Positions 42,316-62,773 of a DNA stretch of 64,000 nucleotides are shown piece by piece. The position numbers and the translations under genes were made by a program. The notes under the pieces are model-generated. The model had not been told where the DNA came from and ran no database searches. It was given only the letters and a program-made list of their open reading frames with translations. Source of the DNA: Chloroflexota bacterium (lineage in GTDB: Bacteria; Chloroflexota; UBA11872; VXOZ01); assembly GCA_963662335.2 (NCBI GenBank), contig CAXXVD010000005.1:480001-544000 (forward strand), read 5' to 3'. Position 1 is the stretch's first letter. The number at the start of each line of letters is the position of its first letter.

Positions 42316-43050
42316 TTGATGCGCAGTTTCAGAAAGACTCTTGAAGTGCGTGAGCGCGATCTACTGCGTTTCTACAAGATTCTTGCCGCCTTAGAACGCA
42401 AGGTCGGTGGCACGCGCAAACTTGCCGACTGCACTGGGCGCGGTAATTGGCCTAGGCGGGGTGTTTACTTCTTTCAGGAACCCGGTGAATTTCGCCCTGA
42501 TACCGGGGATAGCTTGCGGATCGTCCGCGTTGGAGTTGGGCCTGATGGAGTTCGTTCCAGTTCGCGTACTCTCTGGGACCGCTTGCATGATCACAAAGGG
42601 TTTAGCACTTCTTCCGGTGGCAATCATCGAGGCTCGATATTCCGGCGTCTCGTAGGTGAATCACTAATGAATCGTGACGACGTGTTCTGTCCGTCGTGGA
42701 AGAGAGGAATACCCAAACCGCGATCAGGCACAAAACGAGAAATCGAGGAAGCCTTGGAGCGAAAGGTCAGGGCTGAAATCGGGGCGATGCCCTTTCTGTG
42801 GATTGCAGTTGAGGATGAAGCAGGTCCCGAAAGCATGAGATCTTGTATTGAGCGCAACACCATCGCGCTCCTAAGCAACTATCAAAGACCGCCGTTAGAC
42901 TCGCCTTCCGACGACTGGCTGGGAAGTTGGTGCAGCCGAACAAAAGTGAAGGAGTCCGGCCTGTGGAACAATCGCCACGTCGATGAGCGCTACCAGCCAC
43001 AGTTCCTGGATACTCTCGAAGCTGTCGTGGGAACAATGCGAGAAAGTTAA
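42316..43050 (+). CDS. GIY-YIG-like nuclease
   Basis: RGVYFF...IVRVG hairpin, TLWDRLHDH helix, GNHRGSIFR, IERNTIALL; low GC. Confidence 0.6.
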   Translation: MMRSFRKTLEVRERDLLRFYKILAALERKVGGTRKLADCTGRGNWPRRGVYFFQEPGEFRPDTGDSLRIVRVGVGPDGVRSSSRTLWDRLHDHKGFSTSSGGNHRGSIFRRLVGESLMNRDDVFCPSWKRGIPKPRSGTKREIEEALERKVRAEIGAMPFLWIAVEDEAGPESMRSCIERNTIALLSNYQRPPLDSPSDDWLGSWCSRTKVKESGLWNNRHVDERYQPQFLDTLEAVVGTMRES

Positions 43051-43092
43051 TGACTGTCTAGCTAGAGCCAGATCATTAGAGATGAGGTTTTC

Positions 43093-43809
43093 ATGGTCAT
43101 TGTCATGCCATGCGCAGGTGACAAGTGCAAGAGTGCGGGCAGAATGAAGCAGGCCGATGGTAAGCTAGTAGAGTTCGTTGCTCACCCAAAGAAAGTACCA
43201 CCAAACAAGAAGAGCCCCACGAATGCATTTGCTCATCCTGATTGCTTGATATCTTCATCTTCCGATAAGTCTTGGAGAGATGAGCTAAAACGCTACAATG
43301 TAGAATACAGGAGATCAGGGTCCAACCCCTTGAAGCTGCTGCCTGCAAAGGACTTGTATCGTCCTCGTGCTCATTCAGGCATTTATCAGGATTTGGTGGC
43401 GAAATTCTCTTTAGAAAGTGTGTTCATCCTGTCCGCCGGATGGGGATTGATTGGTTCAGGATTTCTAACGCCTTACTACGACGTAACATTTAACAGTGGA
43501 GCTAGAGAGTGGAAGAAGCGAAAGACAAGAGATGACTTTGATGACCTGTGCCACCTAAAGCATGGCATGACAGGCCCTCTAGTGTTCTTGGGTGGCAATG
43601 ATTATTTGAAGCATTTCGCTAGACTGACTCAGGGTATTGAGTGTCAGAAGGTGGTTTTCTTCTACAACGACACTAATCTGAGTGCCAAGAAGACTCATCC
43701 TAGTTTGCCCAACACCGAATTTCGACCATTCGATACCACGGAGTGTTTCAAGAGGATCTGGCATTACCTGTGCGCTCAAGCTCTGATTGACGGCAGAGTT
43801 ACAATTTAA
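43093..43809 (+). CDS. YaaA/DUF6884-like hypothetical protein
   Basis: IVMPCAGDK, LPAKDLY, FILSAGWGLI, PYYDVTF, FLGG.DY pattern; low GC. Confidence 0.55.
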   Translation: MVIVMPCAGDKCKSAGRMKQADGKLVEFVAHPKKVPPNKKSPTNAFAHPDCLISSSSDKSWRDELKRYNVEYRRSGSNPLKLLPAKDLYRPRAHSGIYQDLVAKFSLESVFILSAGWGLIGSGFLTPYYDVTFNSGAREWKKRKTRDDFDDLCHLKHGMTGPLVFLGGNDYLKHFARLTQGIECQKVVFFYNDTNLSAKKTHPSLPNTEFRPFDTTECFKRIWHYLCAQALIDGRVTI

Positions 43810-47644: not shown

Positions 47645-47652
47645 AACGGGTC

Positions 47653-48051
47653 TCACTCCGTCGCGCGCAGGCGTTCCACGTTGCCCGGCCAGGCCAGGAT
47701 GCGCTCATCGGCGGTCACCAAGCGGTGGCCTTCCAGTGCCGTAGCCACGATCAAGCGGTCGGCCGGGTCGGCGTGCAAGTCCGACAGCAGCGTGGCGCGG
47801 ATGCCGATGGCGCCGCTCACCGGGATTTCCACCATTCCCTGCGCCAACTGCTCATCGCGCCAACGGCCCACGTCTTCCGGAAACGTGATACGCCCCTTCG
47901 CTCGCAGCATCGCAACTTCCCAGAACGAGATCGCGGAAACACACACCCCGTCGGACCGCCATGCCGCGCCGATCGCGTCACGCGCGCTCGCGCCCAGGCG
48001 GTCGTTGTCCAACCTGAGCCACAGCAGCACGTGCGTATCCAGGATTATCAC
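47653..48051 (-). CDS. vapC: Type II TA toxin, VapC/PIN domain
   Basis: IILDTHVLLW, VSAISFWEV, HADPADRLIVATA, LVTADE; GTGA overlap with antitoxin. Confidence 0.92.
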   Translation of the reverse strand: MIILDTHVLLWLRLDNDRLGASARDAIGAAWRSDGVCVSAISFWEVAMLRAKGRITFPEDVGRWRDEQLAQGMVEIPVSGAIGIRATLLSDLHADPADRLIVATALEGHRLVTADERILAWPGNVERLRATE

Positions 48052-48332
48052 GGTTCCAGCACCCGGTCCGGGTCGCTCTCGGCCTCCCACTCCTCATCCA
48101 GTGGCGCGACGATGTCTCCCACAATCTCGATCCGCCCTTTGTCTATGCCAAACAGGCTCTCCGGCCGCTCCCGGTACGGCGTCAGCCGCGACACCGGCCG
48201 CCCTCGCTTGGTGATCACGATCTCCTTGCCGCTGGCCGCCACCTCGTCCATCAGTTTCAGGCACTTCGCCTTGAACTCCGACGCCTTCATCACCCGCGCG
48301 CCGGACTTGGCCGGGTCGTCCACCGCATCCAT
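48048..48332 (-). CDS. Type II TA antitoxin, Phd/YefM family
   Basis: KASEFKAKCLKLMDEV, IVITKRGRPVSRL, GDIVAP. Confidence 0.92.
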   Translation of the reverse strand: MDAVDDPAKSGARVMKASEFKAKCLKLMDEVAASGKEIVITKRGRPVSRLTPYRERPESLFGIDKGRIEIVGDIVAPLDEEWEAESDPDRVLEP

Positions 48333-48368
48333 GCCGCATCGTCCTCTATTGATAGGTATTTCCCCTTG

Positions 48369-48396
48369 ATTGTAGCATGGTCATGACTATGGTCAC
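48369..48396 (-). promoter_or_regulatory. TA promoter (extended -10 TGCTACAAT) with TGACCAT repeat/palindrome operator
   Basis: Minus strand reads GTGACCATAGTCATGACCATGCTACAAT directly upstream of the antitoxin; type II TA operons autoregulate via such operators. Confidence 0.6.
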
Positions 48397-48444
48397 GTCC
48401 AGAACGACACCGCCGCACGCCGCGCCGGTGGGTCGCGCCATGCC

Positions 48445-49548
48445 CTATCGCACCTCGATGCCCTGCTCCGCCGCGACGCGGAGTTGGCGCTCTGAGTATT
48501 CCACCGCGCGGGTGTGTTCGCCGTCGCGTTCCAGCCGCACCAGCGCGCCGGAGACGTTTTCGGTTGCCACCGCCGCCTGGGCGAAGCCCGCCACGCAGTC
48601 CCAGCTATGGGTGGTGGCAAACACCTGCACGTTGTTCGCCTGCGCCGTCAGCAGCACCATGCGCCAGAAATCGCGCTGCAGCGTGTGGTGAATGCCGTTC
48701 TCCGCCTCGTCGATCAGCAGGAACCCGTCCTTGCTGTTCGCCAGCGCCAACGCCACCCCAAACAACCGCACCGCCCCATCCCCCAAACTCCGCAACGGCA
48801 CCGGCAGCTCCTGCCCAGAGATTCTGACCTTTGCGCGCCTTCCATAGCGCGTAGCCACTTCTTCGCCGACAACTGCGACACGCTCTACCTTGTCACGAAA
48901 GACCAGCCCCAGGGACTCTACAACGTGCTCCTCGTAGTCCGTCAGCGCAACCCTGTCCCATAGCCGTGCAATGTCGTGGTTGCCCAGAACGCTTGGCCCA
49001 AGGAACTCGCATCGGATGCCAGCGCCTAGTCCCACGTCACTTAGAACTGGCCTACTAATCAACCGAGTCTGCAGATAGCTGACTGGCACGGTGTTTTCGT
49101 CTCTATCGAACTCTAGCGTCAGAGTCCGGTTGTCCTCGTCCGACATGCTATGTGGTGATCTTCCCGACCAACCCTCAGACTTCTCTCCGTCGCGCATTCC
49201 AGCCTCAATACTAAGGACCTGGCGGCGCCCTGTGGGACCAATGGTTATGGGGCTGCGCGGCAAGGCCCGCCGCCCGTAGAATAGTGATTCCCAGTCAGGC
49301 AGCAATCTGTCTTTTTCATCGTATTCGAAGTCTCTGGCAATCTCCTCGTGTTGCGCCAAAATGCTCTCTAACACTGTCAGCAGGCCGCGCGCGGCATAAG
49401 TGCGCACCGCATCAAGCACAGTCGTCTTGCCGGCGCCGTTCTTGCCAGCGATGAGAGTCACGCGACCCAAGCACTCAATCGAGAGGTCTTGGATACCGCG
49501 AAACCTTCTGATGGTCAGATTGGGGAGATGCAGGTCATTTGCAGACAC
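48445..49548 (-). CDS. ABC-type AAA ATPase (AAA_15/AAA_21-like)
   Basis: RFRGI, GKNGAGKTT, SLGDG signature, LLIDEAENGIHH, TTHS, C-terminal IEVR. Confidence 0.85.
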   Translation of the reverse strand: MSANDLHLPNLTIRRFRGIQDLSIECLGRVTLIAGKNGAGKTTVLDAVRTYAARGLLTVLESILAQHEEIARDFEYDEKDRLLPDWESLFYGRRALPRSPITIGPTGRRQVLSIEAGMRDGEKSEGWSGRSPHSMSDEDNRTLTLEFDRDENTVPVSYLQTRLISRPVLSDVGLGAGIRCEFLGPSVLGNHDIARLWDRVALTDYEEHVVESLGLVFRDKVERVAVVGEEVATRYGRRAKVRISGQELPVPLRSLGDGAVRLFGVALALANSKDGFLLIDEAENGIHHTLQRDFWRMVLLTAQANNVQVFATTHSWDCVAGFAQAAVATENVSGALVRLERDGEHTRAVEYSERQLRVAAEQGIEVR

Positions 49549-49758
49549 GGCTGTAATTTTCTCGCTGTATGTTTCCGCAATACTTGAAGCCTGATAGGAG
49601 GGCGAGTCCGTAGCAATGCAGTGTGCCCAATAAACGTTGACTGCAATGTCTCACTTGCCTTGTCCAGTATACAAGAACCCACCATATGGCAGGCAGACTG
49701 GCAGGCCAACTCTACCTCGTCTTTGGACAAACTCATTTACTAGCGCCTCGCTGGTACA

Positions 49759-52700
49759 ATGGCATTAATGAATACCATCGATGCATCTGACATTGCCGAA
49801 TGGGCACGCAGCCGCGAAGCTCAGCACCAGTTGCCATGCCTGATCAGGCGCTTGGTCATGGAAACTTGCCCTGAAGTCAGCTTCATTGATATGCCGAGTG
49901 GTAGCTCAGTCGTGTTGCCTGGTTGGGATGGCCTGGTCACGGTCCAATCTGGAAACGCGTGGATCCCTCGCGGTCACTTGGCAATTGAAATGAGTTGTGG
50001 CCAGAATCCCGGCCGTATGGCAACGGAAAACTATGAGAAGCGCACAAATGACCCGCTAGGTATTGATGTTGCCAATACCACATTCATTTTCATCACTCCC
50101 CGGAAATGGCCAGGAAAGCGTCAATGGGTGTGCGAACGAAAGGAGGAAGGGAATTGGGCGGATGTTAGAGTTATCGATGCTGACGACTTGGTTGCGTGGA
50201 TCGAACAGGCCCCATCTGAAAGGGAGTGGTTTGCTGGCTTGATTGGCAAGGGTCTCATGGGGTTGGGCAGAAGCATCGTAGAAGATGTCAATCAGCACTC
50301 GAACAACCTCCAAAGCGAAGTCATGGCGGAAATTCGAGATTTCCGCGCCAGTGTGTTGGCCACAGCGGACTCCGAAGGTACGCAGACCGCTCTCGATCCT
50401 GCGCATGTGAAGTTGGAGGCCAAAATAGACTCGGCTCGAGACAGCATTAGGCGAGGGTACGTAAGTGCCGCCAAGAGCCAACTTCAGGAGCTTAGAAATA
50501 AGCATGGAACACTCCCGCCAGAACTCGACTTTCGCATTGTTGCCAATCTCGGTATCTGCGCGCTTGCAGTTGACGAAATTAACGGCGCGTGCACACTGTT
50601 CGAGGAAGCGCATAGTCTCCAGCCAGAAAACCCGAGAGCTATAGCCTATGCCGCCTTGGCTGCCCATCTCAAGGAAGACCGGAAGAAAGCGGTTAGATTG
50701 GCAATCAAGGCGCGAGAGTTAGACCCACAGAGTTCGCAAGCGACTGCAATTCTACTCTTGAAGTACTGGGAAACAGGGCGAGTCGAGGAGCTTGATGAAC
50801 TCATCGCTACTGAAGCGTGGCTAGCCAAAGATCCGCACTGCGGTGCGATTGTGGCAAGCATCCGAGCTGATCAGATGCGCTTCAATGAAGCAGCAACGAT
50901 ATGCCGTTCACTTACAAAAGCCAATCCAGATGACTTTGAATTGCAGTTGGCCTTGGCCGCTTGTCTGCTTAGTTGGGCCCAAGCAGACCGGCGTGCTTTC
51001 CAATACACACTTGACTCTGAATCAATCCTCAATGAGGCGAAGGCAGCAGCTACCCATGCCATCGAACAACTGCAGGAAACGGACTTGAAAGGGAAATTTC
51101 ACAACGCTCTTGCTATCCGCGCAGACGCCAAATCGCTACTTGGGGAATGGGCAGAGGCGATTCATGACTTTGACAGGGTACTCGCCGAAGACTCTAGACA
51201 CAATGAGGCAGCATTCAACAAGGGCCTGCTGCTTGCGCGAATGGGGAGAATGAAGGAAGCACTACCCTTGTTTGAGACAGTCTGGAATTCTGGTGAAATC
51301 CCACACGTGGACTTGCCGCTTGCAGATGCCTATCTTGCTTCCGGCGACCCGTCAGAGGCGGTCAAGCTCTTGAATGGAACCGTCACACTCAAGCGCCTCG
51401 AATGGATCGACATTCAGAGGGCAGAAATCCTGTCTCAGGCAGAGAAAGAAGCCGGGGTTAGAGACTCGGTAGAGGAAATCCTCAATGCGGCTCTACAGAG
51501 GTTTCCCAGCAATCCGAGGCTCCTCACGCTTGAGTCTACGCTCTGCGAAATCCATGGAGACGCCGAGGGTGCCGAGCAGTCACTTCTCAAGGCACTCAAA
51601 CACTCTGACGGTTCTGACCATAGGCAGATAGAGTTGCGATTAGCTAATCTCCACTATAGTCACCACCGTTTCGCAAGAGCTGCCAAGCTATTCGAAGGGA
51701 TCGTTAACGGCGTTGCCTCCCACCCGCTTGCAAGTACGCTTTTGCGTTGCCTGATAATTTCGAAGCAACTTCGCGAAGCACTCGATTGGGCGAGAGAAAT
51801 CAAGGATGAGTCAAGCGGGGTGTCAAAGTTGGCGTTAGCAGTCGAGGTTGAGGTTCTTCAAATTGCTGGAGACGTTCCCGCTGCCGTTTCGTGTTTACTG
51901 GAAATCTGCAAATTCGAGGACGCAACAGCGGAAGATCGGCTTCGACTTGCCGAGGCCCAATATCGATGCGGTGAGCGCGGTTCGGCTCATGAGACTGTGC
52001 ATGGCATCACTTCACTGGAACTCATCAACGACCCACAACTGCTCATGAAGTTGGCGCAACTGAAGTTCCTACTAGGTTCGACAGACTTTCTCAATGATGC
52101 CTACATGGCGCTTCGCCACGGGAGAGATGATCCTGCCGTTCACAAAGGATACGGTGGCCTGTTCACTGCCTGTGAAAGGAGTTGGACCGAACCGGAAGAA
52201 ATCGGACCCGGCTGTGCTGTTCTGCTGCGAAATGAGTCTGGTCAGCAATGGTGGAACATACTTGAAGAAGGGGAAGAACCTCACGGCCCGCATGACATAT
52301 CTTCAACTAGTAGGCTTGGCGCCATCCTTAGTGGTCAACGTGAAGGCAAGACTATTGTTCTGCGGCAAGACCTAGAGGAGTTGTCTTATAGAGTAGAAGA
52401 GGTACAAAGCAAGTTTGTCCGCGCATTTCAAGAGACATTCGAAGAGTTCTCGACCCGTTTTCCAGGTGACATGAGCCTTTCCCGCATTGAGATTAAGGAT
52501 GATGACTTTACGAAGTTTTACCAAATCGTAGAACATGCCGACCAGTCCGAGCGCAATGCACTTCGCGTTTACCAAGAAGGGAAGGTGCCATTTGTCACTT
52601 TCTTTCCCCTGCTTCGCAAACCGTTTCTTGATGTATGGGTTCGGCTTACTTATGAAGATTCTGGCTTGATTGCGGGAGACGGCACAAATGAAGAAGCAGA

Positions 52701-53646
52701 AAGAGCCGAGTCCTTAATGCGCGGAGCCCAAGACGTAGTCTTGGGTCTTGTCGCGCTGCTAACTGTACGAGCGCTGAGTATTTCCGAACATCTGCGAGAC
52801 CGTTTCTCGCGCATCTTTGTGCCCCAGTACGTACTCGATGCGATCTACGATGCTGTTTCTGAAGCTGAGTTTACAGGTCAGCCTGCCGGCTTTCTTGGGA
52901 AGAGTACAGAAGGCTACTATACATTTAATGAAGCCACTGAGAACTCTTGGAGTAAGCGGCAAGAATTCTTGATGTCACTCAGGGATCTTGCCGAGTCCTT
53001 TGAGCGAATCCCGTCCTATCGGGTACTTGAGATCAATGACCTTGACGAGATGAGGAGTGCCCTAACCCCAGTAGGCGTCGGTGCCGTGTTTGCTGGCTAC
53101 GAAGGCATGGAGAATGGCCCAGTTCTCATTTCTGATGACCTAGCACTATCGAAGGTCGCCCAATCCAGGAGTATCAGTGTCGTCAACTCGGAGGCCGTCT
53201 TGCGTGAATTGCATCGTACGGACGTGATCTCCGAGGAAGCCTATTCTTCGTATATTGAACAGCTAGTATTGATGAACTATAGGTTTGTTCGCGTCGGCCC
53301 TGGAGATATTCTCCGACGCCTTGAAGCCGGAGATTACCTGACAACGCCAGGAATTCGCAAGATGATTAGCACTCTAGACGGACCCGACTGTTCCTTAGAA
53401 TCCGCTGTTTCTGTTGCAACTACGGTAGTTTCCAAGCTCACCGGTAAGACCCACCCAAGCCAAGTCGGGTTGATTGTCATGGCATTTCTTGAAAGTCTAC
53501 AAAAGGGAAGAAATCCAGCCGTCGCTTTGTTGAAATTTAGGCATGAACTCGAATCCATGCTAGACCCGCGTTCCCCCAGGAGGCACGATGTCCTTGACAT
53601 TGTGGACATGCATATAGAGCTTCTTGATCAGCCGCCCTATAGCTGA
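49759..53646 (+). CDS. Large conflict protein: REase-like N-domain + TPR repeats + GreA/GreB-C-like domain + PIN-like domain
   Basis: N-term PGWDG..IEMS..YEKRT..FITPRKW..DADDLVAW; TPR-like helices; IGPGCAVLL..ISSTSRLGAILSGQREG..YRVEEV; C-term IFVP..VLISDDLAL; low GC; real start may be 49768. Confidence 0.7.
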   Translation: MALMNTIDASDIAEWARSREAQHQLPCLIRRLVMETCPEVSFIDMPSGSSVVLPGWDGLVTVQSGNAWIPRGHLAIEMSCGQNPGRMATENYEKRTNDPLGIDVANTTFIFITPRKWPGKRQWVCERKEEGNWADVRVIDADDLVAWIEQAPSEREWFAGLIGKGLMGLGRSIVEDVNQHSNNLQSEVMAEIRDFRASVLATADSEGTQTALDPAHVKLEAKIDSARDSIRRGYVSAAKSQLQELRNKHGTLPPELDFRIVANLGICALAVDEINGACTLFEEAHSLQPENPRAIAYAALAAHLKEDRKKAVRLAIKARELDPQSSQATAILLLKYWETGRVEELDELIATEAWLAKDPHCGAIVASIRADQMRFNEAATICRSLTKANPDDFELQLALAACLLSWAQADRRAFQYTLDSESILNEAKAAATHAIEQLQETDLKGKFHNALAIRADAKSLLGEWAEAIHDFDRVLAEDSRHNEAAFNKGLLLARMGRMKEALPLFETVWNSGEIPHVDLPLADAYLASGDPSEAVKLLNGTVTLKRLEWIDIQRAEILSQAEKEAGVRDSVEEILNAALQRFPSNPRLLTLESTLCEIHGDAEGAEQSLLKALKHSDGSDHRQIELRLANLHYSHHRFARAAKLFEGIVNGVASHPLASTLLRCLIISKQLREALDWAREIKDESSGVSKLALAVEVEVLQIAGDVPAAVSCLLEICKFEDATAEDRLRLAEAQYRCGERGSAHETVHGITSLELINDPQLLMKLAQLKFLLGSTDFLNDAYMALRHGRDDPAVHKGYGGLFTACERSWTEPEEIGPGCAVLLRNESGQQWWNILEEGEEPHGPHDISSTSRLGAILSGQREGKTIVLRQDLEELSYRVEEVQSKFVRAFQETFEEFSTRFPGDMSLSRIEIKDDDFTKFYQIVEHADQSERNALRVYQEGKVPFVTFFPLLRKPFLDVWVRLTYEDSGLIAGDGTNEEAERAESLMRGAQDVVLGLVALLTVRALSISEHLRDRFSRIFVPQYVLDAIYDAVSEAEFTGQPAGFLGKSTEGYYTFNEATENSWSKRQEFLMSLRDLAESFERIPSYRVLEINDLDEMRSALTPVGVGAVFAGYEGMENGPVLISDDLALSKVAQSRSISVVNSEAVLRELHRTDVISEEAYSSYIEQLVLMNYRFVRVGPGDILRRLEAGDYLTTPGIRKMISTLDGPDCSLESAVSVATTVVSKLTGKTHPSQVGLIVMAFLESLQKGRNPAVALLKFRHELESMLDPRSPRRHDVLDIVDMHIELLDQPPYS

Positions 53647-53704
53647 TGGGCCAAAGCTGCGTGAACATGAAATAGGTGACAAGCTAGGCACAATTGCAGC
53701 GAGT

Positions 53705-56605
53705 CTACACCACAAACTTCGCGCCTTTGGGTCTTGGTTTGGCGCCGTGGACGGACGGTTCGGCGCACCATTTGGCTGCAAGGCGGCGGACGGCTGCGTA
53801 GGTTTGTTCGTCGAATCCCAAGAGGTCGCAAGTGACGCGGCGGTCGAGGAGGGCGCGGTTCGGGTCGGCATCGGCAAGGTAGGCCGGCTTTAGTTCTCTA
53901 TCGCGGAATTCATCGAAGATTAGCTCAGCCATGATAAGTTGATCGTCGCTGAGAGCGCGGAAATCGAGCATAGGGAGGGAGTCAATCGCGCGAACTGTCG
54001 TCCGCCCGCGACCGCTCTGTTGACGATTGGCATGCCACCAGTGCGCGAGCAAACCGAGTGTAGAGTTGCCCCACACAGCCAGTCCGTAATCGAAGCGGGG
54101 ATCTGAGAAGAGTACGTTAGGCCACGCCGTGCCGCCTATGCTCTTTTCATCAGTAAACGCTACCCCTAATGGTTGCGAATTATAGCGAAAGTCAAGGTTT
54201 AAGTGAGCACGACTGGCAGTTGACCATGCGGATGCGGCTCTCTCTTCCATTCCTTGTCGCACAAGCAATTGCAAGTCCGGCAAGCAGGTAATGCGAGTCT
54301 CATTCTTTGCATTATGACTCCAAATTGAAGGATAGGTGGCGGTTGGGCTGGGCGGCCCTTTCGTAAACGGCCCTGATGAGCCAGCGATGTTAATGTGATG
54401 CCACCCACGCCTCCCTACATCACTGAGGGCCGCAATCTTCAACTCTGCCGAATCGACTTGCCCTGGCAACCATAGCCTACACTGTGACAGAGCGTAGGCA
54501 GTTTGTGCCACGGAGCAATCCAATAAGCGAACCGCGCCCCAATTGTAATCACTGCAAGGCGCCGACATAGATTCTCCGATTAGCTCCTCTCCAACCGTCA
54601 GAGGCGCACCGCCATACGGCCCGTCTTCAATGCGTCTCACCTGCTTGGTGGAGATCGTCTCCCTTGCAACCGAGTTTGCATTAGCAAACCCCTGAGGCCT
54701 GCGCCTCAGCGACGAAAAGAGTGCACGGTCATTAGGTGATTCATCCGGCCTATTCCTGCGGGCAATTACCAGACACTCTGCCATTCCCGTGTCCGCTGAA
54801 AAGGAGAGACTGTCGTTGTCCGCAGCGGTTATGGTGAGTACACTTAACTCTGCATAGTTGCCAGCGATCAACTCCCGAAAGTCCTGCCAGGACTGCCCGG
54901 ATGCAGCTGTCAAGGGAAGCACCAAGGCCAAGACGCCGCCCGGCTTAATCTTCCTGTGGGCCAGTGCCGCAAATGCGGAAGCGATGCCAGCGTAGCCGTG
55001 GTAGCAGGTGCCCTTCGTAGACTTCTTCAGGCTCGCCGCCATTTCCTTTTGGGTTACCAGTTCCGTGCTCAGCCCCCTGAACTGCTTCACATAGTCCTCG
55101 GCCCTCTCACTGCCTTCCCAATCCGAGCCGGGCCGCGTAAACGGCGGGTTCATTATCACCACGTCAAAGCTCTCATCGGGCATATCCACCGTTACTTGCG
55201 CGGCGGTTTCCTCGCCCACGCTGCCGGTGCGCAGGGCCGGGTCGCTGGTATTGAAGAGGGTTTGCACGTCCGAGCGTTGCAGGAGTTCCAGCGAGCCGAT
55301 TTTCACCGTGCCGTCGGGTTGGCGGCCGTAGGGCATGGTATAGAGGCGCGAATTGCCGAAGCGCGCCGCGGGTTCCACGCCGGATAACGTAGAACCGGTG
55401 ATGTGGATGGCCGAGGGCATCACGTCGCAGCCGTAGAGGACGTCCTCCATCATGGCCTGGTGCAGGGCGGCCGGATCGCCGCCGCTGCGTTCGTGGCGGG
55501 CGGCAATCTGCTCGTAGACCGCCGAGAGCAGCGCGCCGGTGCCGCAGGCAAAGTCGGCCACCCGCAGCCTGCCAATGGCGTCCGCATCCGCCCAATCCAC
55601 GCCCGCCAGCTTGGCCACCGCCAACCGCGCCAGCAGCGCCGCAGACGCCGGCAGCGTGTAGAACGTGGCCAGATACTTGCGGTCGGCTATCAGGCGCTGG
55701 AAGATGCGGCCGGTGAGGTCGTGCGAATTGGCCACGCCCATGGCGCTGATGGATTGCGCCGTGCCCCGCAAGCGCCGCAGGATCTGGGCCGCCTCCGCCG
55801 CGGGCAGTTGCTCCAGGATGTCTTTCGCCACCCCGAAGATGGCCCAGTAGTTTATCTCCAAAATCTCCTGCCAGGCGGTGAGCACCTGGGCCTGGGGATT
55901 GGCAACGGTGTCGCCGCAGACGACGTTGAGCGACTTGACGCCGGTGTGCATGCCGTAGATGCGCTCGTGGAAGACCAGGGCGTTGGCAATAATGGCGCAG
56001 GCCATGCGGCGGGTCTGGGGCACGTTGCTCATGCCGAGCAAACGGGCGATCGTCATGGTGACGGCCTGGCGGTTGGTGTCCATCTCGTTCAAGATTTCGG
56101 CGGCGTTGTCAATGCCATCCTGCAAGATGTCGGTGGCGTCATCCACGGCCCGCTGCGGCACGGATACCAACCGCGCGAGGTCGGCCAGGTCCGCGGGCGC
56201 GCCCTCCAACCACCCGGCTTCGGGAAAGCGCTTGACACCCTTCTTTTCCTCCGTGAACACACAATAGGAAAGACGGGCGTCCGCGAGCGCGCCGGCAAGG
56301 TCGGCGGCGTCGCCTATCTCGTGCGGATAGCGCAGGGCGATGGCGGCCTCGATGCGGCGCCCGCTGGCGGCAACCTCCAACCCCAACCGCGCTTTGGCTT
56401 CGGCCTCCACACTTACGGCCGGCAAATACTCGGCCTCGATCACCACCGGCGCGCGCCCGGCCGCGGTGATGAGTATGTCCGGCCGCAACCCCGGCTGCCC
56501 GGCAATGGCACGGGTGTTCTCGGACCGCACGTCAGTCCGCGCCATCATGCCCGTGAGCACGGTTCCTAAGGCGTTGTTGACACTGGGTTCGGTCTGGCGA
56601 GGCAT
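53705..56605 (-). CDS. Type IIG-like fused restriction-modification enzyme (N6-adenine MTase)
   Basis: N-term RPDIL..VVIEAE nuclease-like motif, ATFYT, DFACGTG motif I, MNPPF motif IV, lower-GC TRD-like C-region; start trimmed to MPRQTEP. Confidence 0.8.
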   Translation of the reverse strand: MPRQTEPSVNNALGTVLTGMMARTDVRSENTRAIAGQPGLRPDILITAAGRAPVVIEAEYLPAVSVEAEAKARLGLEVAASGRRIEAAIALRYPHEIGDAADLAGALADARLSYCVFTEEKKGVKRFPEAGWLEGAPADLADLARLVSVPQRAVDDATDILQDGIDNAAEILNEMDTNRQAVTMTIARLLGMSNVPQTRRMACAIIANALVFHERIYGMHTGVKSLNVVCGDTVANPQAQVLTAWQEILEINYWAIFGVAKDILEQLPAAEAAQILRRLRGTAQSISAMGVANSHDLTGRIFQRLIADRKYLATFYTLPASAALLARLAVAKLAGVDWADADAIGRLRVADFACGTGALLSAVYEQIAARHERSGGDPAALHQAMMEDVLYGCDVMPSAIHITGSTLSGVEPAARFGNSRLYTMPYGRQPDGTVKIGSLELLQRSDVQTLFNTSDPALRTGSVGEETAAQVTVDMPDESFDVVIMNPPFTRPGSDWEGSERAEDYVKQFRGLSTELVTQKEMAASLKKSTKGTCYHGYAGIASAFAALAHRKIKPGGVLALVLPLTAASGQSWQDFRELIAGNYAELSVLTITAADNDSLSFSADTGMAECLVIARRNRPDESPNDRALFSSLRRRPQGFANANSVARETISTKQVRRIEDGPYGGAPLTVGEELIGESMSAPCSDYNWGAVRLLDCSVAQTAYALSQCRLWLPGQVDSAELKIAALSDVGRRGWHHINIAGSSGPFTKGPPSPTATYPSIWSHNAKNETRITCLPDLQLLVRQGMEERAASAWSTASRAHLNLDFRYNSQPLGVAFTDEKSIGGTAWPNVLFSDPRFDYGLAVWGNSTLGLLAHWWHANRQQSGRGRTTVRAIDSLPMLDFRALSDDQLIMAELIFDEFRDRELKPAYLADADPNRALLDRRVTCDLLGFDEQTYAAVRRLAAKWCAEPSVHGAKPRPKGAKFVV

Positions 56606-56643
56606 GTGCGAGCCTTTCGTGCACCGGCGTGCGCGCTGCCGCG

Positions 56644-56676
56644 GCCAAGAGGCGGGGGACAAGCCCCCGCGCTACG
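56644..56676 (-). repeat. Family D GTAG-type REP
   Basis: Exact reverse complement of 21192-21224. Confidence 0.82.
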
Positions 56677-56895
56677 ACTATTGCATTTCCGTGTCAAAGC
56701 GGCGCGGGATATGCGCCAGCGCTACGTCTATTGTAAAGGGAAACGGCATTGCGCAGCGCGTCAGGACGCCCAAGTTGCCAATGGCGGAACTATCGCCTAG
56801 TCTACATCTCGACGGGCACGGCGGCGCGCGTGCAAGAGCCGGGCCTGGCATGGGGCCGGATGGCCGGTTCAGCCAAATCCCATACGCAACAATCG

Positions 56896-59430
56896 ATGAA
56901 TGAAGCTACAGCGCGGCTCAAGATCAACAAGCTGCTGGAGCAGGCGGGATGGCGCTTCTTCCCGCAAGAGGATAGGCCGGCGAACGTCCGGCTGGAGCCT
57001 CACGTGGCGCTCGCGCAGAACGACCTTGATTCTCTTGGCGATGACTTCGAGCAGACGGCCAAGGGATTCGTGGACTTTCTCTTGCTGGATGCCAAGGGGC
57101 GCCCGCTAGTTGTGCTGGAGGCCAAGTCCGAAGAGAAAGAGCCGCTATCGGCAAAGGAGCAGGCGCGCCGGTACGCCCGTTCCCTGGATTGCCGGTTTGT
57201 CATCCTCTCCAACGGCAACCTGCACTACCTCTGGGACCTGGAGCGGGGCAATCCGCACGTCATCACCACTTTTCCCACGCCGGACTCGGTCGCGCGCTAC
57301 ACCAGGCTTACACCAAATCCGCAGCGCCTCAGCGACGAACGTGTCCACGTCGATTACATCGTCCTCAGCCAGCGGCCGAATTACGCATCCGAAGCGGCGT
57401 GGTTGAATTCGGCGGAACGGCCCGGCTTCATCAAGGCGCACAACCTGCGCTTTCTGCGGTCGTACCAGCTTAGTGCCATTCACGCCTTGCAGCGCTCCGT
57501 GAGGGATGGCAACGACCGCTTCTTGTTCGAGATGGCCACCGGCACCGGCAAGACCCTCACCGCCGCGGCCGTCATCAAGCTCTTCCTGCGCTCCGGCAAC
57601 GCCTCGCGCGTGTTGTTTCTCGTAGACCGCCTGGAACTGGAGGAGCAAGCCAGGAAGGTCTTCACCGGCCTCCTCTCGGCAGACTACACGACCGTCGTCT
57701 ACAAAGAGCGGCGCGACGATTGGCGCGCGGCGGAAATCGTCGTCACCACCGTGCAGTCGCTCTTGTTCAACAGCAAGTACCAGACGCTCTTCTCGCCAAC
57801 CGACTTCGACCTGGTCATCTCCGACGAGGCGCACCGTTCCATCAGCGGCAATGCCCGCGCCGTTTTCGACTACTTCGTCGGCTACAAGCTCGGCCTGACC
57901 GCCACGCCGCGCGACTACCTGAAAGGAGTCACGAGCAAAGGCCCGATCGTCCACGACCCGCGCGAGGTGGAACGCCGCCTGCTGGAGGACACCTACCGCA
58001 CGTTCGGCTGCGCGAGCGGCCAGCCCACGTTCCGCTACTCGCTGCTGGACGGCGTGCGCGGCGGCTATCTTATCAACCCCACCGTGGTGGACGCGCGCAC
58101 CGACGTGACGACTCAGTTGCTGGCGGAGCAAGGCCTCATCGTTTCCGTCACCGACGACACCGGGGAAGAGCGCGAGGAATCCTACAAGCAGCGGGAGTTT
58201 GAAAAGCGCTTCTTTTCCGAAGCCACGAACCAGGTTTTTTGTAAGACCTTTCTGGATAATGCGCTGCGGGATCCGGTGAGCGGTGAGATTGGCAAGTCAA
58301 TCGTCTTCGCCGTCAGCCAGAGTCACGCCGCGCGCCTGACCCAGACCCTCAACGAGATGGCGGACCGCATGTTCCCGGGCCGGTATCAGTCCGACTTTGC
58401 CGTGCAAGTTACGTCGCACGTGGCGGACGCCCAGCGATTCGCCGTCAATTTTGCCAACAATAACCTGATGGGCACGAGCGCCATCCTGCCCGGCTATCGC
58501 ACCAGCAAGGCGCGGGTGTGCGTTACCGTCGGCATGATGACCACCGGCTACGACTGCACCGACATCCTCAACCTCGGCCTCTTCCGGCCCATCTTCTCGC
58601 CCACCGACTTCGTGCAGATCAAGGGCCGCGGCACGCGCCGGCATGACTTCCGTGAGGAACTGCACGACCCGAGCATGGCGGAGCGCGTGGCCGAAGCGGA
58701 AAAGACCACGTTCAAGCTCTTCGACTTCTTTGGCAACTGCGAGTACTTCGAGACTGAATTCAACTATGACGAAGTCCTGACGCTGCCCAGGCCGCAGCCC
58801 ACACCAAGCGAATCAGCCGGCGGAGCGGGTCAGCCGGCGCAATTCGAAGGCGCGTATCAGCACCTCGGCACGGACATCATTGCTTCCATAAGGGAAGAGC
58901 CGATCGGCGCGGAAGGCATGAAGATCGACCGCATGCTATTCGATCGCTTTGCCGACACCGTGCGTGAGGATGAAACCGTCAAAGATGCGGTCGAGGCCGA
59001 CCAGTGGGACCGCGCCTTCGACCACGTGCATCGCGAAATCTTCGATAAGCCGGAGGACTTCTATAACCTGGAAAAGCTGCGGCGCGCCCTGGATGTGGAC
59101 CGGCGCGTGACCCTCCGCGAAATGCTGGAATTGATCTTCGATCTCATCCCGCGCCTCAAGTCAAAGGACGAATTGCTGGAAGAGGAGTTCGCCAAGTTCG
59201 TCGCTGACCGCGAACCGGCGGCCCGCTCGCTGCCGGCAGTCAAAGCGTTCTTCAAGGCGTACGTCACCAGCGATTTCACGCGCCTTGTAGTCGATGCCGG
59301 CGAATTCACCAAGTTGGCTACCAATCCCGCCTTCTCCATGCAGGACTACCGTTCGGTGCCGCCGCGGTACCGCGCGCTCGTTCCCGAATACGTCAAAGAC
59401 TATGTCTCGCTAAACCGCTTTGCTACGTAG
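56896..59430 (+). CDS. hsdR: Type I restriction enzyme R subunit (EcoAI/EcoEI-like)
   Basis: VDFLL..VLEAK nuclease motif, MATGTGKT, FLVDR, DEAHRS, LTATP, MMTTGYD, QIKGRGTR; start trimmed to MNEATAR. Confidence 0.9.
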   Translation: MNEATARLKINKLLEQAGWRFFPQEDRPANVRLEPHVALAQNDLDSLGDDFEQTAKGFVDFLLLDAKGRPLVVLEAKSEEKEPLSAKEQARRYARSLDCRFVILSNGNLHYLWDLERGNPHVITTFPTPDSVARYTRLTPNPQRLSDERVHVDYIVLSQRPNYASEAAWLNSAERPGFIKAHNLRFLRSYQLSAIHALQRSVRDGNDRFLFEMATGTGKTLTAAAVIKLFLRSGNASRVLFLVDRLELEEQARKVFTGLLSADYTTVVYKERRDDWRAAEIVVTTVQSLLFNSKYQTLFSPTDFDLVISDEAHRSISGNARAVFDYFVGYKLGLTATPRDYLKGVTSKGPIVHDPREVERRLLEDTYRTFGCASGQPTFRYSLLDGVRGGYLINPTVVDARTDVTTQLLAEQGLIVSVTDDTGEEREESYKQREFEKRFFSEATNQVFCKTFLDNALRDPVSGEIGKSIVFAVSQSHAARLTQTLNEMADRMFPGRYQSDFAVQVTSHVADAQRFAVNFANNNLMGTSAILPGYRTSKARVCVTVGMMTTGYDCTDILNLGLFRPIFSPTDFVQIKGRGTRRHDFREELHDPSMAERVAEAEKTTFKLFDFFGNCEYFETEFNYDEVLTLPRPQPTPSESAGGAGQPAQFEGAYQHLGTDIIASIREEPIGAEGMKIDRMLFDRFADTVREDETVKDAVEADQWDRAFDHVHREIFDKPEDFYNLEKLRRALDVDRRVTLREMLELIFDLIPRLKSKDELLEEEFAKFVADREPAARSLPAVKAFFKAYVTSDFTRLVVDAGEFTKLATNPAFSMQDYRSVPPRYRALVPEYVKDYVSLNRFAT

Positions 59431-59435
59431 ATCAA

Positions 59436-60060
59436 TTGAACATGGATGCGCAGGATGGGCAGGATGTAAGATGTTGTATGAAGCCGATCCCGGCAAACTT
59501 CAGATTGCTCCATCAATCCAGTATGTCCGGTGCGCCCTATGAAGAACCCATCATGAACGCAAATCTCCTGCACGCGGAACTGACTCACGCCGTGATTGGC
59601 TGCGCCTTTGCCGTGATCAATGAACTTGGCAGTGGTTTTCTGGAATCGGTCTATGAAAAGTCGATGCTGATCGCGCTTGCCGACGCCGGCATCGGCGCTG
59701 CCGCCCAGCAGCCGATTGTCGTGAACTTTCGGGGCAAACCCGTGGGAACCTTCTACGCCGACCTCCTCGTGGAAGGAAAGGTACTCGTCGAACTCAAGGC
59801 GGTGAAGGCCCTCGCTCCCGAACACCAAGCCCAGGTCATCAACTACCTCAAAGCAACCGGCATCGAAGTAGGGCTCCTCATCAACTTCGGCAATCCCAAA
59901 CTCGAATTCAAACGCCTCACCCGCAGCCCGGACAAGCGAGAAAAATAGACCCGCCAACCACCAACCGGCCAGTCATGCTAGACAGGAATAGTGGCAAAGA
60001 GTATGACCCAAGTCACCCACACTCTTCACCATCCTATCCATCCTGCCAATCCATGTTGAA
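59436..60060. mobile_element. Putative mobile cassette: GxxExxY gene bounded by 30-bp imperfect inverted repeats
   Basis: 59436-59465 TTGAACATGGATGCGCAGGATGGGCAGGAT vs reverse complement of 60031-60060 TTCAACATGGATTGGCAGGATGGATAGGAT (25/30 identical). Confidence 0.55.
59553..59948 (+). CDS. GxxExxY protein (PD-(D/E)xK nuclease family)
   Basis: LGSGFLESVYE, YADLLVEGKVLVELKA, AQVINYLKATG..VGLLINFG. Confidence 0.92.
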   Translation: MNANLLHAELTHAVIGCAFAVINELGSGFLESVYEKSMLIALADAGIGAAAQQPIVVNFRGKPVGTFYADLLVEGKVLVELKAVKALAPEHQAQVINYLKATGIEVGLLINFGNPKLEFKRLTRSPDKREK

Positions 60061-60074
60061 TCAAGGACTTCGCC

Positions 60075-62618
60075 ATGCTAGACGCCGACACCAAACGCCG
60101 CATCGATACCGCCCGCGACATCCTGGTGGGCAAGGTGCCCGACCCCAAGAGCCAGGTGGAGCAGATCACCATCGCCCTCATCTACAAGTTCATGGACGAC
60201 ATCGACGCCGAGAGCGAGGAACTGGGCGGCCGGCGTAGCTTCTTTGCCGGTGACTTTGCCCGTTTCGGTTGGGCCAAGCTCATGCGCGCCGGCCTGGGCG
60301 GGCACGAGACGCTCAATCTCTACGCCGAGGCCATCACCCGCATGGCGGAGAACCCCGGCATCCCGCGCCTCTTCCGCGACATCTTCAACAACGCCTACCT
60401 GCCCTACCGCGACCCGGAGACCCTGCGCGCCTTCCTCAAGGTCATTGACGAGTTCGTCTACGACCATTCCGAGCGGCTGGGCGACGCATTCGAGTATCTG
60501 CTCTCGGTGCTCGGCGCGCAGGGCGACGCCGGCCAGTTCCGCACGCCGCGCCACATCATCGACTTCATTGTGGCCGTGGTCGATCCCAAGAAGGACGAGA
60601 CCGTGCTGGACCCGGCCTGCGGCACGGCCGGCTTCCTCATCTCGTCATACAAGCACGTGCTAGCAGCCAACACCGGCGCGGACGGCGCCAGCGCCCTTAC
60701 GCCCGACGAGCGCGAGCGCCTGGCGGCGAACTTCACGGGCTACGACATCTCGCCGGACATGGTGCGCCTCTCGCTGGTCAACATGTACCTGCACCAGTTC
60801 GCCAATCCAAGAATCTTCGAGTACGACACCCTGACCAGCGAGGAGCGGTGGCACGAGTACGCCGACGTGATCCTGGCCAATCCGCCGTTCATGTCGCCCA
60901 AAGGCGGCATCCGGCCCCACAACCGCTTCTCGGTGCAGTCCAAACGCAGCGAGGTGCTGTTCGTGGACTACATGGCCGAGCACCTGACCCCCACCGGCCG
61001 CGCCGGCTTCATCGTGCCCGAGGGCATCATCTTCCAGAGCCAAAACGCCCACAAGCAACTGCGCAAACTGCTGGTGGAGGAATACCTGGTGGCCGTGGTC
61101 TCCCTGCCGGCCGGGGTCTTCAACCCCTATTCGGGCGTGAAGACCTCGATCCTGTTCCTGGATAGGGCGCTTGCCAAGAAGAGCGACCGTATTGCGTTCT
61201 TCAAGGTGGAGAACGATGGGTTTGACCTGGGAGCACAACGGCGGCCTATTGAGAAGAATGACCTGCCGCAGGTCCAGGTTGAGTTATCCGAATATCTGCA
61301 CGGCCTGAGGGCAGGTGAGCCGAGCGTGGATAACCAGTTCAATTCGGGCGTTATCGTGGAAAAGGAAAGGGTCGCTGCTACTGATGAATACAATCTCAGC
61401 AGCGAGAGGTACAGAACTCCCATTTCCGGCAGTACAGCCTACCCATTCGTACCTTTAGGAGATGTGGCAGAACTCATCAGAGGGATGACATTCCGCAAGT
61501 CCGATCAACTCGAACAAGCTACCGAGGATTCATTGCCTGTAGCAACAACAAAGGCTGCGCAAGAGTCAGGGATTGTCGAAAACGCGCTCTACCACGTTCC
61601 CCGCTCGCTTCTTAGAGATGATCGAAAGTTGCTAAGTCCCGGCGACATTCTGATTTCTACTGCGAATAGCCTTCGACTGCTCGGAAGAACGACGCACGTA
61701 CGAGATGTCAGTCGTCCCACCTCATTCGGCGCTTTCATGTCTGTAATTCGACCGAATTCAAGCGTCTTGGACACCTATCTGATTCGCTGCCTTCGAACCA
61801 AGTTCGCATACGACTTCTTCATGAGAAACGCAAATACCACGACCAACATCTCAAACCTCAACCTAAGTACACTTGCAGACTTCCAAATCCCCCTCCCGCC
61901 ACTGGAGGTACAGCAAGAGATCGTCGCCGAAATCGAGGGCTACCAGAAAGTCATAGACGGCGCCCGCGCCGTCATCGACAACTACCGCCCCCACATCCCC
62001 ATCAACCCTGACTGGCCGATGGTAGAACTGGGCGATCCTGACGTATTCCGTGTAGAGAGTGGTGGCACTCCCAAGTCGGACTCCAAGGAATACTGGGATG
62101 GCGGCGTCCCCTGGATTACGCTTGTCGACCTGCCGCCGGACCGCTTCATCACAGAAATCACCACCACAGCGAGGACGATAAGCGAAGACGGTCTACGAAA
62201 CTCATCGGCCAAGCTGCTTCCAGCAAACTCCGTTGTCGTTTCATCAAGGGCGACCATCGGCCGAATCGGCATAAATCGAATACCGCTCGCCACCAATCAA
62301 GGATTTAAGAACGTAGTCATCGAGGACACGACCCGAGCGATCCCCGAATACGTCGCTCTAGCGATGACGAAGTTGGTACCAACCATGCAAGCCCAAGCCA
62401 GCGGTGCAACTTACAAGGAAATAGTCAAGTCAAGGTTCAGCAGACTCCAAATCCCTCTCCCATCGCGCGAAATCCAAGAGGGCATCGTAGCCGGGATTCA
62501 AGCTGAGCAGAATCTAGTCAACGCTAACTGCGAGCTAATCGAACGCTTCGAGCGGAAGATTCAGGATGCCGTAGCACGGGTCTGGGGCGAGGGCGCAACT
62601 GCCCGGAACGACTCTTGA
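60075..62618 (+). CDS. hsdM: Type I RM methyltransferase fused to specificity subunit (HsdM-HsdS)
   Basis: LGDAFEYLL, GQFRTPRHI, DPACGTAGFL, ANPPF; then two TRDs each ending in QIPLP..E.Q..IV conserved repeats. Confidence 0.9.
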   Translation: MLDADTKRRIDTARDILVGKVPDPKSQVEQITIALIYKFMDDIDAESEELGGRRSFFAGDFARFGWAKLMRAGLGGHETLNLYAEAITRMAENPGIPRLFRDIFNNAYLPYRDPETLRAFLKVIDEFVYDHSERLGDAFEYLLSVLGAQGDAGQFRTPRHIIDFIVAVVDPKKDETVLDPACGTAGFLISSYKHVLAANTGADGASALTPDERERLAANFTGYDISPDMVRLSLVNMYLHQFANPRIFEYDTLTSEERWHEYADVILANPPFMSPKGGIRPHNRFSVQSKRSEVLFVDYMAEHLTPTGRAGFIVPEGIIFQSQNAHKQLRKLLVEEYLVAVVSLPAGVFNPYSGVKTSILFLDRALAKKSDRIAFFKVENDGFDLGAQRRPIEKNDLPQVQVELSEYLHGLRAGEPSVDNQFNSGVIVEKERVAATDEYNLSSERYRTPISGSTAYPFVPLGDVAELIRGMTFRKSDQLEQATEDSLPVATTKAAQESGIVENALYHVPRSLLRDDRKLLSPGDILISTANSLRLLGRTTHVRDVSRPTSFGAFMSVIRPNSSVLDTYLIRCLRTKFAYDFFMRNANTTTNISNLNLSTLADFQIPLPPLEVQQEIVAEIEGYQKVIDGARAVIDNYRPHIPINPDWPMVELGDPDVFRVESGGTPKSDSKEYWDGGVPWITLVDLPPDRFITEITTTARTISEDGLRNSSAKLLPANSVVVSSRATIGRIGINRIPLATNQGFKNVVIEDTTRAIPEYVALAMTKLVPTMQAQASGATYKEIVKSRFSRLQIPLPSREIQEGIVAGIQAEQNLVNANCELIERFERKIQDAVARVWGEGATARNDS

Positions 62619-62773
62619 TAGGCAACTGAAGTTTCTCCCGTTTCATTCCATTTGCCCTCGCAGAATACAGCACATCTGGCACAATCCTAAAGAATCCATT
62701 ACGATACATAGCATGAAGTTGTCCATGTGTAAGTCGCCCAAGCCCCATTGAACTGCACATATTTTGCTGTACC

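Follow-up and report, generated by a model that had tools for sequence, protein, structure and literature searches.

The TPR-GreAB-C-PIN (TGP) proteins were described by Kaur, Iyer, Burroughs & Aravind in 2021 (PMC8195603) as a class with a constant, rapidly evolving core of tetratricopeptide repeats (TPRs), a GreA/B C-terminal (GreA/B-C) domain and a form of the PIN domain not detected before. In that description the core follows a variable N-terminal effector of 13 types, including restriction endonuclease (REase), PNPase, TIR, SIR2 and peptidase domains, and the genes are mostly standalone. In the model published there, the GreA/B-C domain contacts a hijacked RNA polymerase (RNAP) at its secondary channel, where it engages the beta' coiled coil; the PIN domain cuts the extruded transcript, and on failure the N-terminal effector fires. 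A preprint (bioRxiv 10.1101/2024.11.07.622273) reports that the TGP protein Agp and its Bell-domain partner Bab from E. coli ECOR25 protect E. coli from T5, and that the GreA/B-C mutants S628L and L634P abolish protection by Agp. TGP proteins are among the few proposed immune sensors reading the state of RNA polymerase, and the sole tested member has an amyloid output. Here, we analysed a stretch of 64,000 nucleotides from the Chloroflexota contig CAXXVD010000005.1 (the window), which carries a gene for a 1295-residue TGP protein with an REase-like N-terminus (hereafter the TGP gene; Table 1). Our reading, to which we assign a probability of roughly 0.6, is that this gene encodes a single-protein anti-phage conflict system of the TGP class, a sensor whose PIN domain is dead and whose N-terminal DNase-type effector retains activity to an uncertain degree, if at all.

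Our literature search retrieved no paper on the TGP class beyond these two and none testing an REase-type member, and the available text of the DefensePredictor paper (PMC13092281) does not treat the class. Going by the published accounts, the class, its REase-bearing variants and the proposed mechanism are already in print, one member has been tested, and the gene in the window is otherwise an expected one. What we add is a Chloroflexota clade in which the N-terminus is often swapped, an unannotated REase-fold module with a D..ExS..K signature that other giant proteins share, a natural allele lacking two PIN acidic residues, and confirmation of the architecture at the level of fold.

The protein consists of an REase-fold N-terminal domain, a TPR solenoid, a GreA/B-C fold, a PF20698-type PIN domain and a helical tail, in that order. 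Its reading frame, the only long one at that place, is free of stop codons, and its GC content (0.517) lies below that of the window (0.628) and of bases 1-40000 (0.651). Pfam TPR families (TPR_19, E = 2.3e-15; TPR_16, E = 1e-12; and others) cover aa 256-711, and PF20698, defined as the 'PIN domain associated with the TPR-GreAB-C-PIN system', matches aa 995-1135 with 34.4 bits against a curated cut-off of 27.8, spanning profile positions 2-137 of 138. Two structures were predicted from family alignments, one for aa 1-200 (mean predicted local distance difference test score, pLDDT, 89.8; predicted template modelling score 0.81) and one for aa 790-1295 (mean pLDDT 83.9), and used in a wide structural search of 48,161 PDB representatives. 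Residues 19-98 of the C-terminal model (aa 808-887) matched Gfh1 (Z = 10.8), GreA (Z = 10.0) and GreB (Z = 9.2) with root-mean-square deviations (rmsd) of 2.2-3.1 over 72-78 aa, and Foldseek returned 13 GreA/GreB/Gfh1/Rnk-type chains among its first 16 rows for this model (probability 1.00, rmsd about 2 A over 75-80 columns). Residues 199-363 (aa 988-1152) matched AF0591 (Z = 7.2 over 102 aa, 24% identity) and the PIN domains of SMG6 and Nmd4 (Z = 6.7).

On these matches we consider the four-part description correct, and there is next to no doubt that the protein belongs to the TGP class. With the class as described in PMC8195603 and PF20698, the gene shares the core order of TPR, GreA/B-C and PIN, a variable N-terminus and a standalone character. 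These results bear out a sequence-only reading of the same DNA, which had proposed a low-GC open reading frame (ORF) of about 1290 codons with TPR-like repeats, a GreA/GreB C-terminal segment and a PIN-like C-terminus, and had noted that such architectures with variable N-terminal effectors were computationally predicted. The repeats are recovered by Pfam, the GreA/B-C domain by its fold and only weakly by sequence, and the PIN domain by both; domain-wise structural searches retrieved the REase, GreA/B-C and PIN folds alike. The segment coordinates given there proved accurate to within a few codons, and all motifs named in it (GWDG, E77-M-S79, K94-R-T96, FITPRKW, VVLG with its GGT codon, and ISDD) are present.

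The GreA/B-C domain is the part of the protein that would connect it to transcription. When a family profile of this region was compared with PDB sequences, the best match was E. coli GreA, whose 'NSPIARGLIG' stands opposite 'TSRLGAILSG' of the window protein, which places S851 and L857 against the Ser and Leu of 'NSPIARGL'. Because this alignment (E = 0.017) pairs a Ser and a Leu six residues apart, we infer that Ser851 and Leu857 may be the counterparts of the Agp residues altered in S628L and L634P. The fold, together with these Agp mutants, suggests that the protein could dock on RNA polymerase. GreA, GreB and Gfh1 share with the window protein the C-terminal fold and the conserved Ser and Leu; in contrast, they possess an N-terminal coiled-coil finger reaching the RNAP active site, which the window protein lacks. 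Prediction of a complex between the GreA/B-C domain and the beta' rim-helix segment of the same genome (P0058, aa 440-620) gave no verdict (score 0.00 in both runs, with no controls) and is evidence neither way.

The N-terminal domain adopts a restriction-endonuclease fold. In the wide structural search, nearly every one of the first 32 rows was a restriction-fold nuclease or restriction-fold protein, among them AF1548 (Z = 9.9, rmsd 2.3, 106 aa), the BspD6I small subunit (8.9), MspJI (8.8), FokI (8.5), LlaBIII (8.3), Can2/Card1 (7.6-7.7) and Avs4 (6.8); Foldseek likewise placed FokI and MspJI on top, with weak scores (E = 2.5e-3 to 4e-2; FokI 2.5e-3). Conserved motifs comprise G55-W-D57-G58, E77-M-S79, K94-R-T96 and F111-I-T-P-R-K-W117. 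Specifically, 30 sequences of several architectures all keep D57 (49927-49929), located before strand 2, and E77 (49987-49989), located in strand 3. This matches the Mrr, FokI and MspJI-type PD-(D/E)xK nucleases, which have the fold in common with the window domain and an Asp before strand 2 and a Glu in strand 3, and which Avs4 and type ISP enzymes likewise use as N-terminal effectors; however, their D..ExK motif reads D..ExS here. The correspondence with the REase type listed in PMC8195603 is one of type name. No Pfam, NCBIfam or PADLOC model matches the domain, and the nearest named Atlas cluster is Mrr_cat, at a score of only 0.89, which we treat as a lead only.

The PIN domain of the window copy has lost two residues of the canonical acidic set. 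G996 ('VVLG', GGT, 52744-52746) replaces the first PIN Asp at the end of strand 1; this position holds D in 25 and E in one of 27 PIN regions, and D in 30 and E in one of 32 full-length sequences, with Gly found only in the window. Position 1028, which opens the helix that follows strand 2 ('VPQxVxDELQ', aligned to 'VPHFVLKELQ' of the PIN protein TTHA0540), is Ala in the window (GCG, 52840-52842) and in one relative (P0006), E in 27 of 32 sequences, D in P0003 and Y in one. The invariant residues D1126 and D1127 (53134-53139, 'ISDD'), N1143 and Q1023 are kept. The catalytic acidic set needed for the proposed transcript cleavage is incomplete in this copy, while its homology to PF20698 is unaffected. 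Since D996G and E1028A remove two canonical acidic residues, the PIN domain of the window copy, as read from its sequence, is most likely not a working RNase. Compared with VapC and SMG6-type PIN RNases, with which it shares the fold, the window PIN aligns its 'SDD' with the 'TND' of TTHA0540, but carries Gly and Ala in place of the first Asp and the Glu, and the fourth position is Asn1143 throughout the family. By lacking two PIN acidic residues, and in that its clade consists almost wholly of Chloroflexota metagenome-assembled genomes (MAGs), the gene departs from the TGP class in general. The sequence-only reading had noticed that the first acidic residue appeared to be Gly, one base from GAT; alignment with homologs shows the domain to be even more degenerate than that, with the Glu changed as well.

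Several observations pull the other way and weigh against our reading. At the N-terminus, the Lys of the ExK motif is replaced by S79 (S, G or T family-wide), and residue 87, where the following helix begins, is K in 29 of the 32 sequences and M only in the window (ATG, 50017-50019). The near-invariant K87 may be a relocated catalytic Lys. With both changes the N-terminal domain of this copy may be inactive too, which would leave the protein devoid of a working effector. The earlier suggestion that the N-terminal domain is the active effector is reasonable, but less secure in view of the family-wide loss of the ExK Lys and of K87M. For the PIN domain, the identification of E1028 as the canonical Glu relies on where the residue lies in the secondary structure and on a very weak alignment with TTHA0540, the best PIN match of the PIN-region profile in the PDB (E = 0.77, a hint for residue mapping), and hhalign of the PIN alignment against the VapC of the window itself gave nothing (probability 0.4%). 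Of the 12 deviations of this copy at 198 conserved columns, two fall on the seven catalytic-like columns, no significant excess over chance (hypergeometric P = 0.06). The Agp mutant D762N abolishes protection but also lowers the protein level, according to the preprint; because the mutant Agp was destabilised, TGPs may or may not need PIN catalysis. At the level of assignment, PF01272 (GreA_GreB C-term) matches aa 813-883 with E = 0.054 and 13.9 bits, under its cut-off of 26.9, the GreA match of the Gre-region profile is weak, and PADLOC models match neither the whole protein nor the N-terminal domain. For the PIN fold, a Z of about 7 counts as middling with this search tool, yet it agrees with the Pfam match. 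NCBIfam returned only generic TPR families for the protein, and TPR matches swamped all else when the whole-family profile was searched against PDB sequences.

These substitutions raise a serious rival: a decaying or disarmed allele, in which the ORF is intact and both nuclease sites have been hit by point changes (K87M, D996G, E1028A), for example where an active copy is costly, so that the gene no longer defends and is becoming a pseudogene. None of the other sequences among the 32 has M87 or G996, and A1028 recurs only in P0006; each of the three is a single base away from the majority codon family. TGP genes split into two or three ORFs at 4 of 27 related loci (L009, L015, L025 and L026) show that decay happens in the family, and next to the gene the AbiLi-like ATPase is without the DUF3226 partner seen at a same-genus locus (see below), which suggests an eroding island. 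However, the frame is open over 3.9 kb, and the 12 deviations at 198 strongly conserved columns fall inside the family range of 1-30. Measured against outgroups, the PIN domain shows an identity of 0.43, slightly below the 0.46-0.51 of the four closest relatives, and its identity to P0003 is 73%; at 63-69% protein identity, synonymous sites would be saturated for a ratio of nonsynonymous to synonymous substitution. Contigs from four public runs contain the whole gene or both its halves with no differences over 3888 nt, so the window-specific residues are not errors of one assembly; the four runs represent at most three samples of one study, possibly including the source sample, and contigs can hide rare variants. 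That the sequence is identical in runs dated 2023-2025 also speaks against this rival. Judged from these comparisons, the gene is not generally degraded, and we hold a disarmed allele to be rather unlikely.

On our preferred reading, a single-protein defence system, the GreA/B-C domain would dock on RNA polymerase at the beta' rim helices of the secondary channel, as in the family model and the Bab/Agp work, the TPR part would sense or transmit a phage-induced change, and the effector would then fire. With a PIN domain that most likely does not function as an RNase, the window copy would owe any killing or restriction activity to its N-terminal REase-like domain, which keeps D57 and E77 but has Met in place of the near-invariant Lys87. 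A bolder version, which we regard as distinctly unlikely, is that a PIN-dead TGP still defends: the GreA/B-C domain would bring a D..ExS..K REase-fold DNase to the transcribing RNAP, and what is cut at sites of hijacked transcription would be DNA of the phage (or host) and not the transcript, with the PIN domain acting only as scaffold or latch. If so, PIN catalysis would be dispensable in the TGP class, and the domain would represent a new RNAP-guided DNase effector family, also found in giant proteins fused to helix-turn-helix (HTH) or PtuA-like modules. The REase-type Chloroflexota clade offers a natural allele without the PIN acids beside relatives keeping them (P0003 and P0004), allowing a comparison of PIN catalysis versus the N-terminal effector.

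The window protein differs from Bab/Agp in its N-terminus and its neighbours. Agp, as presented in the preprint, has 1094 aa and an N-terminal amyloid motif templating a separate Bell-domain executioner, Bab. In contrast, the window protein begins with an REase-like domain that is confidently folded in the model (pLDDT about 90), and its neighbours are an ATPase and a methyltransferase, with no small Bell-domain gene. Judged from the N-terminal fold and the flanking genes, a Bab/Agp-type layout is not seen in the window, although no search aimed at the amyloid (BASS11) motif was made.

The large protein search yielded 56 homologs, about 38 of them full length at 39-68% identity, 16 matching the N-terminal domain only, and two distant TGP proteins. 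A scan of genome collections gave 44 loci, of which 33 were titled Chloroflexota-type MAGs, including all 27 loci matching the core. At 14 of these 27, the match begins only at aa 98-218, which implies a differing N-terminus: Pfam identified SIR2_2 at L013 and L014, and at L004 a MarR-type winged HTH precedes the REase-like domain, while the N-termini of nine other core loci gave no Pfam family above cut-off. Among 16 genomes of the same genus, three had any TGP match (one full length at 63%, one full length at 39%, and one to the N-terminal domain only), and among 60 relatives there were six core matches and five matches to the N-terminal domain only. The TGP gene has a GC content below both flanks at 12 of 13 homolog loci. 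With its low GC, patchy presence in congeners, location in a defence island and lack of a conserved partner gene, the TGP gene is accessory. A housekeeping or regulatory role, that is, a Gre-like secondary-channel transcription factor on a TPR scaffold with no part in conflict, would fit the GreA/B-C fold being the top-scoring structural match. We give this possibility almost no credence, considering that the gene was not found in 13 of the 16 same-genus genomes searched, has a low GC content, sits in a defence island, swaps effector-type N-terminal domains among relatives and lacks the Gre N-terminal coiled coil.

The N-terminal domain also occurs outside the class. Sixteen proteins (P0040-P0055; 902-1751 aa) resemble the TGP protein only over the first roughly 165 residues, and the family of these giant non-TGP proteins appears uncharacterised. 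Their bodies carry no Pfam family; those fused to HTH_XRE measure about 1350 aa, many of them on proteobacterial plasmids (H3-H12), and one giant protein has a PtuA-like ATPase at its C-terminus. In the phage collection, only one short match to the domain was found. Because the domain has no Pfam, NCBIfam or PADLOC model and yet recurs on giant proteins and proteobacterial plasmids, naming it would help the annotation of defence islands.

The genomic setting agrees with a role in defence. The window holds a defence island with a PDC-M57-like pair, VapC, the AbiLi-like ATPase, methyltransferases, the HsdR-like helicase and PDC-M41, as listed in Table 1. We examined the two nearest ORFs on each side of the gene at 27 loci (108 ORFs, 45 with a Pfam match at E <= 1e-6). 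Families that we class as defence-type, namely restriction-modification methyltransferases, GmrSD, TIR, KAP NTPase, AbiEii-like ATPase with DUF3226, Pycsar-type TIR, type ISP and PBECR2, occur at 13 of 27 loci, mobile-element genes (transposase, integrase, recombinase) at 10 and either at 20. The proposal of a candidate defence system in the sequence-only reading is in keeping with these counts; they come without a control set, which weighs against our reading, and show consistency and not enrichment. From genomic context and the single tested relative, a defence role is likely. At L009, one of the loci with a split gene, there is extra DNA within the match, with transposase and integrase genes close by. 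At L030, a DUF3037 protein (L030:11500-12441) adjoins the TGP gene; DUF3037 is listed among the domains newly implicated in defence in PMC13092281.

Closest in organisation is L001, a locus in a same-genus genome (G003), which has the VapC-ATPase-TGP-methyltransferase block in common with the window over about 9 kb (window 47652-56605 versus L001:4471-14895), at 73-81% nucleotide identity and with flanks that do not align. The block looks like an island that was inherited, kept or moved as a unit. A DUF3226 gene at L001 (L001:6044-6676, E = 7.5e-50) lies between the ATPase and the VapC-like ORF, where the window has a gap of about 140 bp (48297-48435); the window block looks to have lost a gene, and its ATPase system looks incomplete without the DUF3226 partner. 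The shared block would also fit a multi-gene system combining the TGP gene with the AbiLi-like ATPase, the Eco57I-like methyltransferase or both. We find this very unlikely. These neighbours occur at none of the other 25 core loci, and all-against-all clustering of flanking ORFs found no neighbour family beyond 7 of 28 loci. The ATPase, like the methyltransferase, matches families of systems known on their own, and the class is described in PMC8195603 as mostly standalone genes. Since they adjoin the TGP gene only in the window and at L001, we treat both as probably separate systems.

Table 1 Coordinates of the TGP gene, its domains and the neighbouring genes in the window.
Feature	Position	Strand	Remarks
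TGP gene	49759..53646	+	1295 aa; start M1 (49759) or M4 (49768); public call from M34 omits conserved residues
N-terminal REase-fold domain	49759..50253	+	aa 1-165; predicted structure and alignment
Helical linker	50254..50508	+	aa 166-250; poorly conserved
TPR / helical-repeat region	50509..52128	+	aa about 251-790
GreA/B C-terminal-like domain	52180..52419	+	aa 808-887
PIN domain, PF20698 type	52723..53193	+	aa 989-1145
Conserved C-terminal helical domain	53254..53643	+	aa 1166-1295; fold matches unspecific helical-repeat only
PDC-M57B-like ORF, then DUF6884/PDC-M57A-like ORF	42316-43809		PDC-M57B-like E 4.3e-74; second low-GC patch, GC 0.48-0.55
VapC-type PIN toxin gene	47653-48090	-	Pfam PIN E 6.6e-13; counterpart L001 4472-4909
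AbiLi / PDC-M38A-like ABC-type ATPase	48445..49548	-	divergent, upstream; E 3.7e-79
Eco57I-like methyltransferase	53705..56662	-	985 aa; convergent, downstream; 74% identical to L001 neighbour
HsdR-like ResIII helicase, PDDEXK_3 protein, fused type I methyltransferase-specificity protein (847 aa), DUF5131/PDC-M41-like ORF	56749-64000		

The DUF5131/PDC-M41-like ORF runs off the window, and the defence island reaches the window end. Small ORFs at 48048-48339 (-), just upstream of VapC on the same strand, could encode an antitoxin.

The source genome contains a single copy of the TGP gene. Homologs start at the equivalent of M4 (M1 in one), and W15 and L28 are conserved, so the true start is at 49759 or 49768. 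The public gene call (P0002, 1262 aa), which begins at M34, is too short and omits a conserved helix of the REase-like domain (49759-49860). In scans for promoters and terminators, sites were no more numerous than in shuffled sequences; a tRNA scan of 38-64 kb found none, and no RNA runs were listed as holding the gene. Contigs of 4.7-4.9 kb with higher depth, from three of the public runs (X1, X2 and X4), have only 51208-51228 and 52440-52463 in common with the TGP gene and probably represent a related TGP gene from another organism in the same samples.

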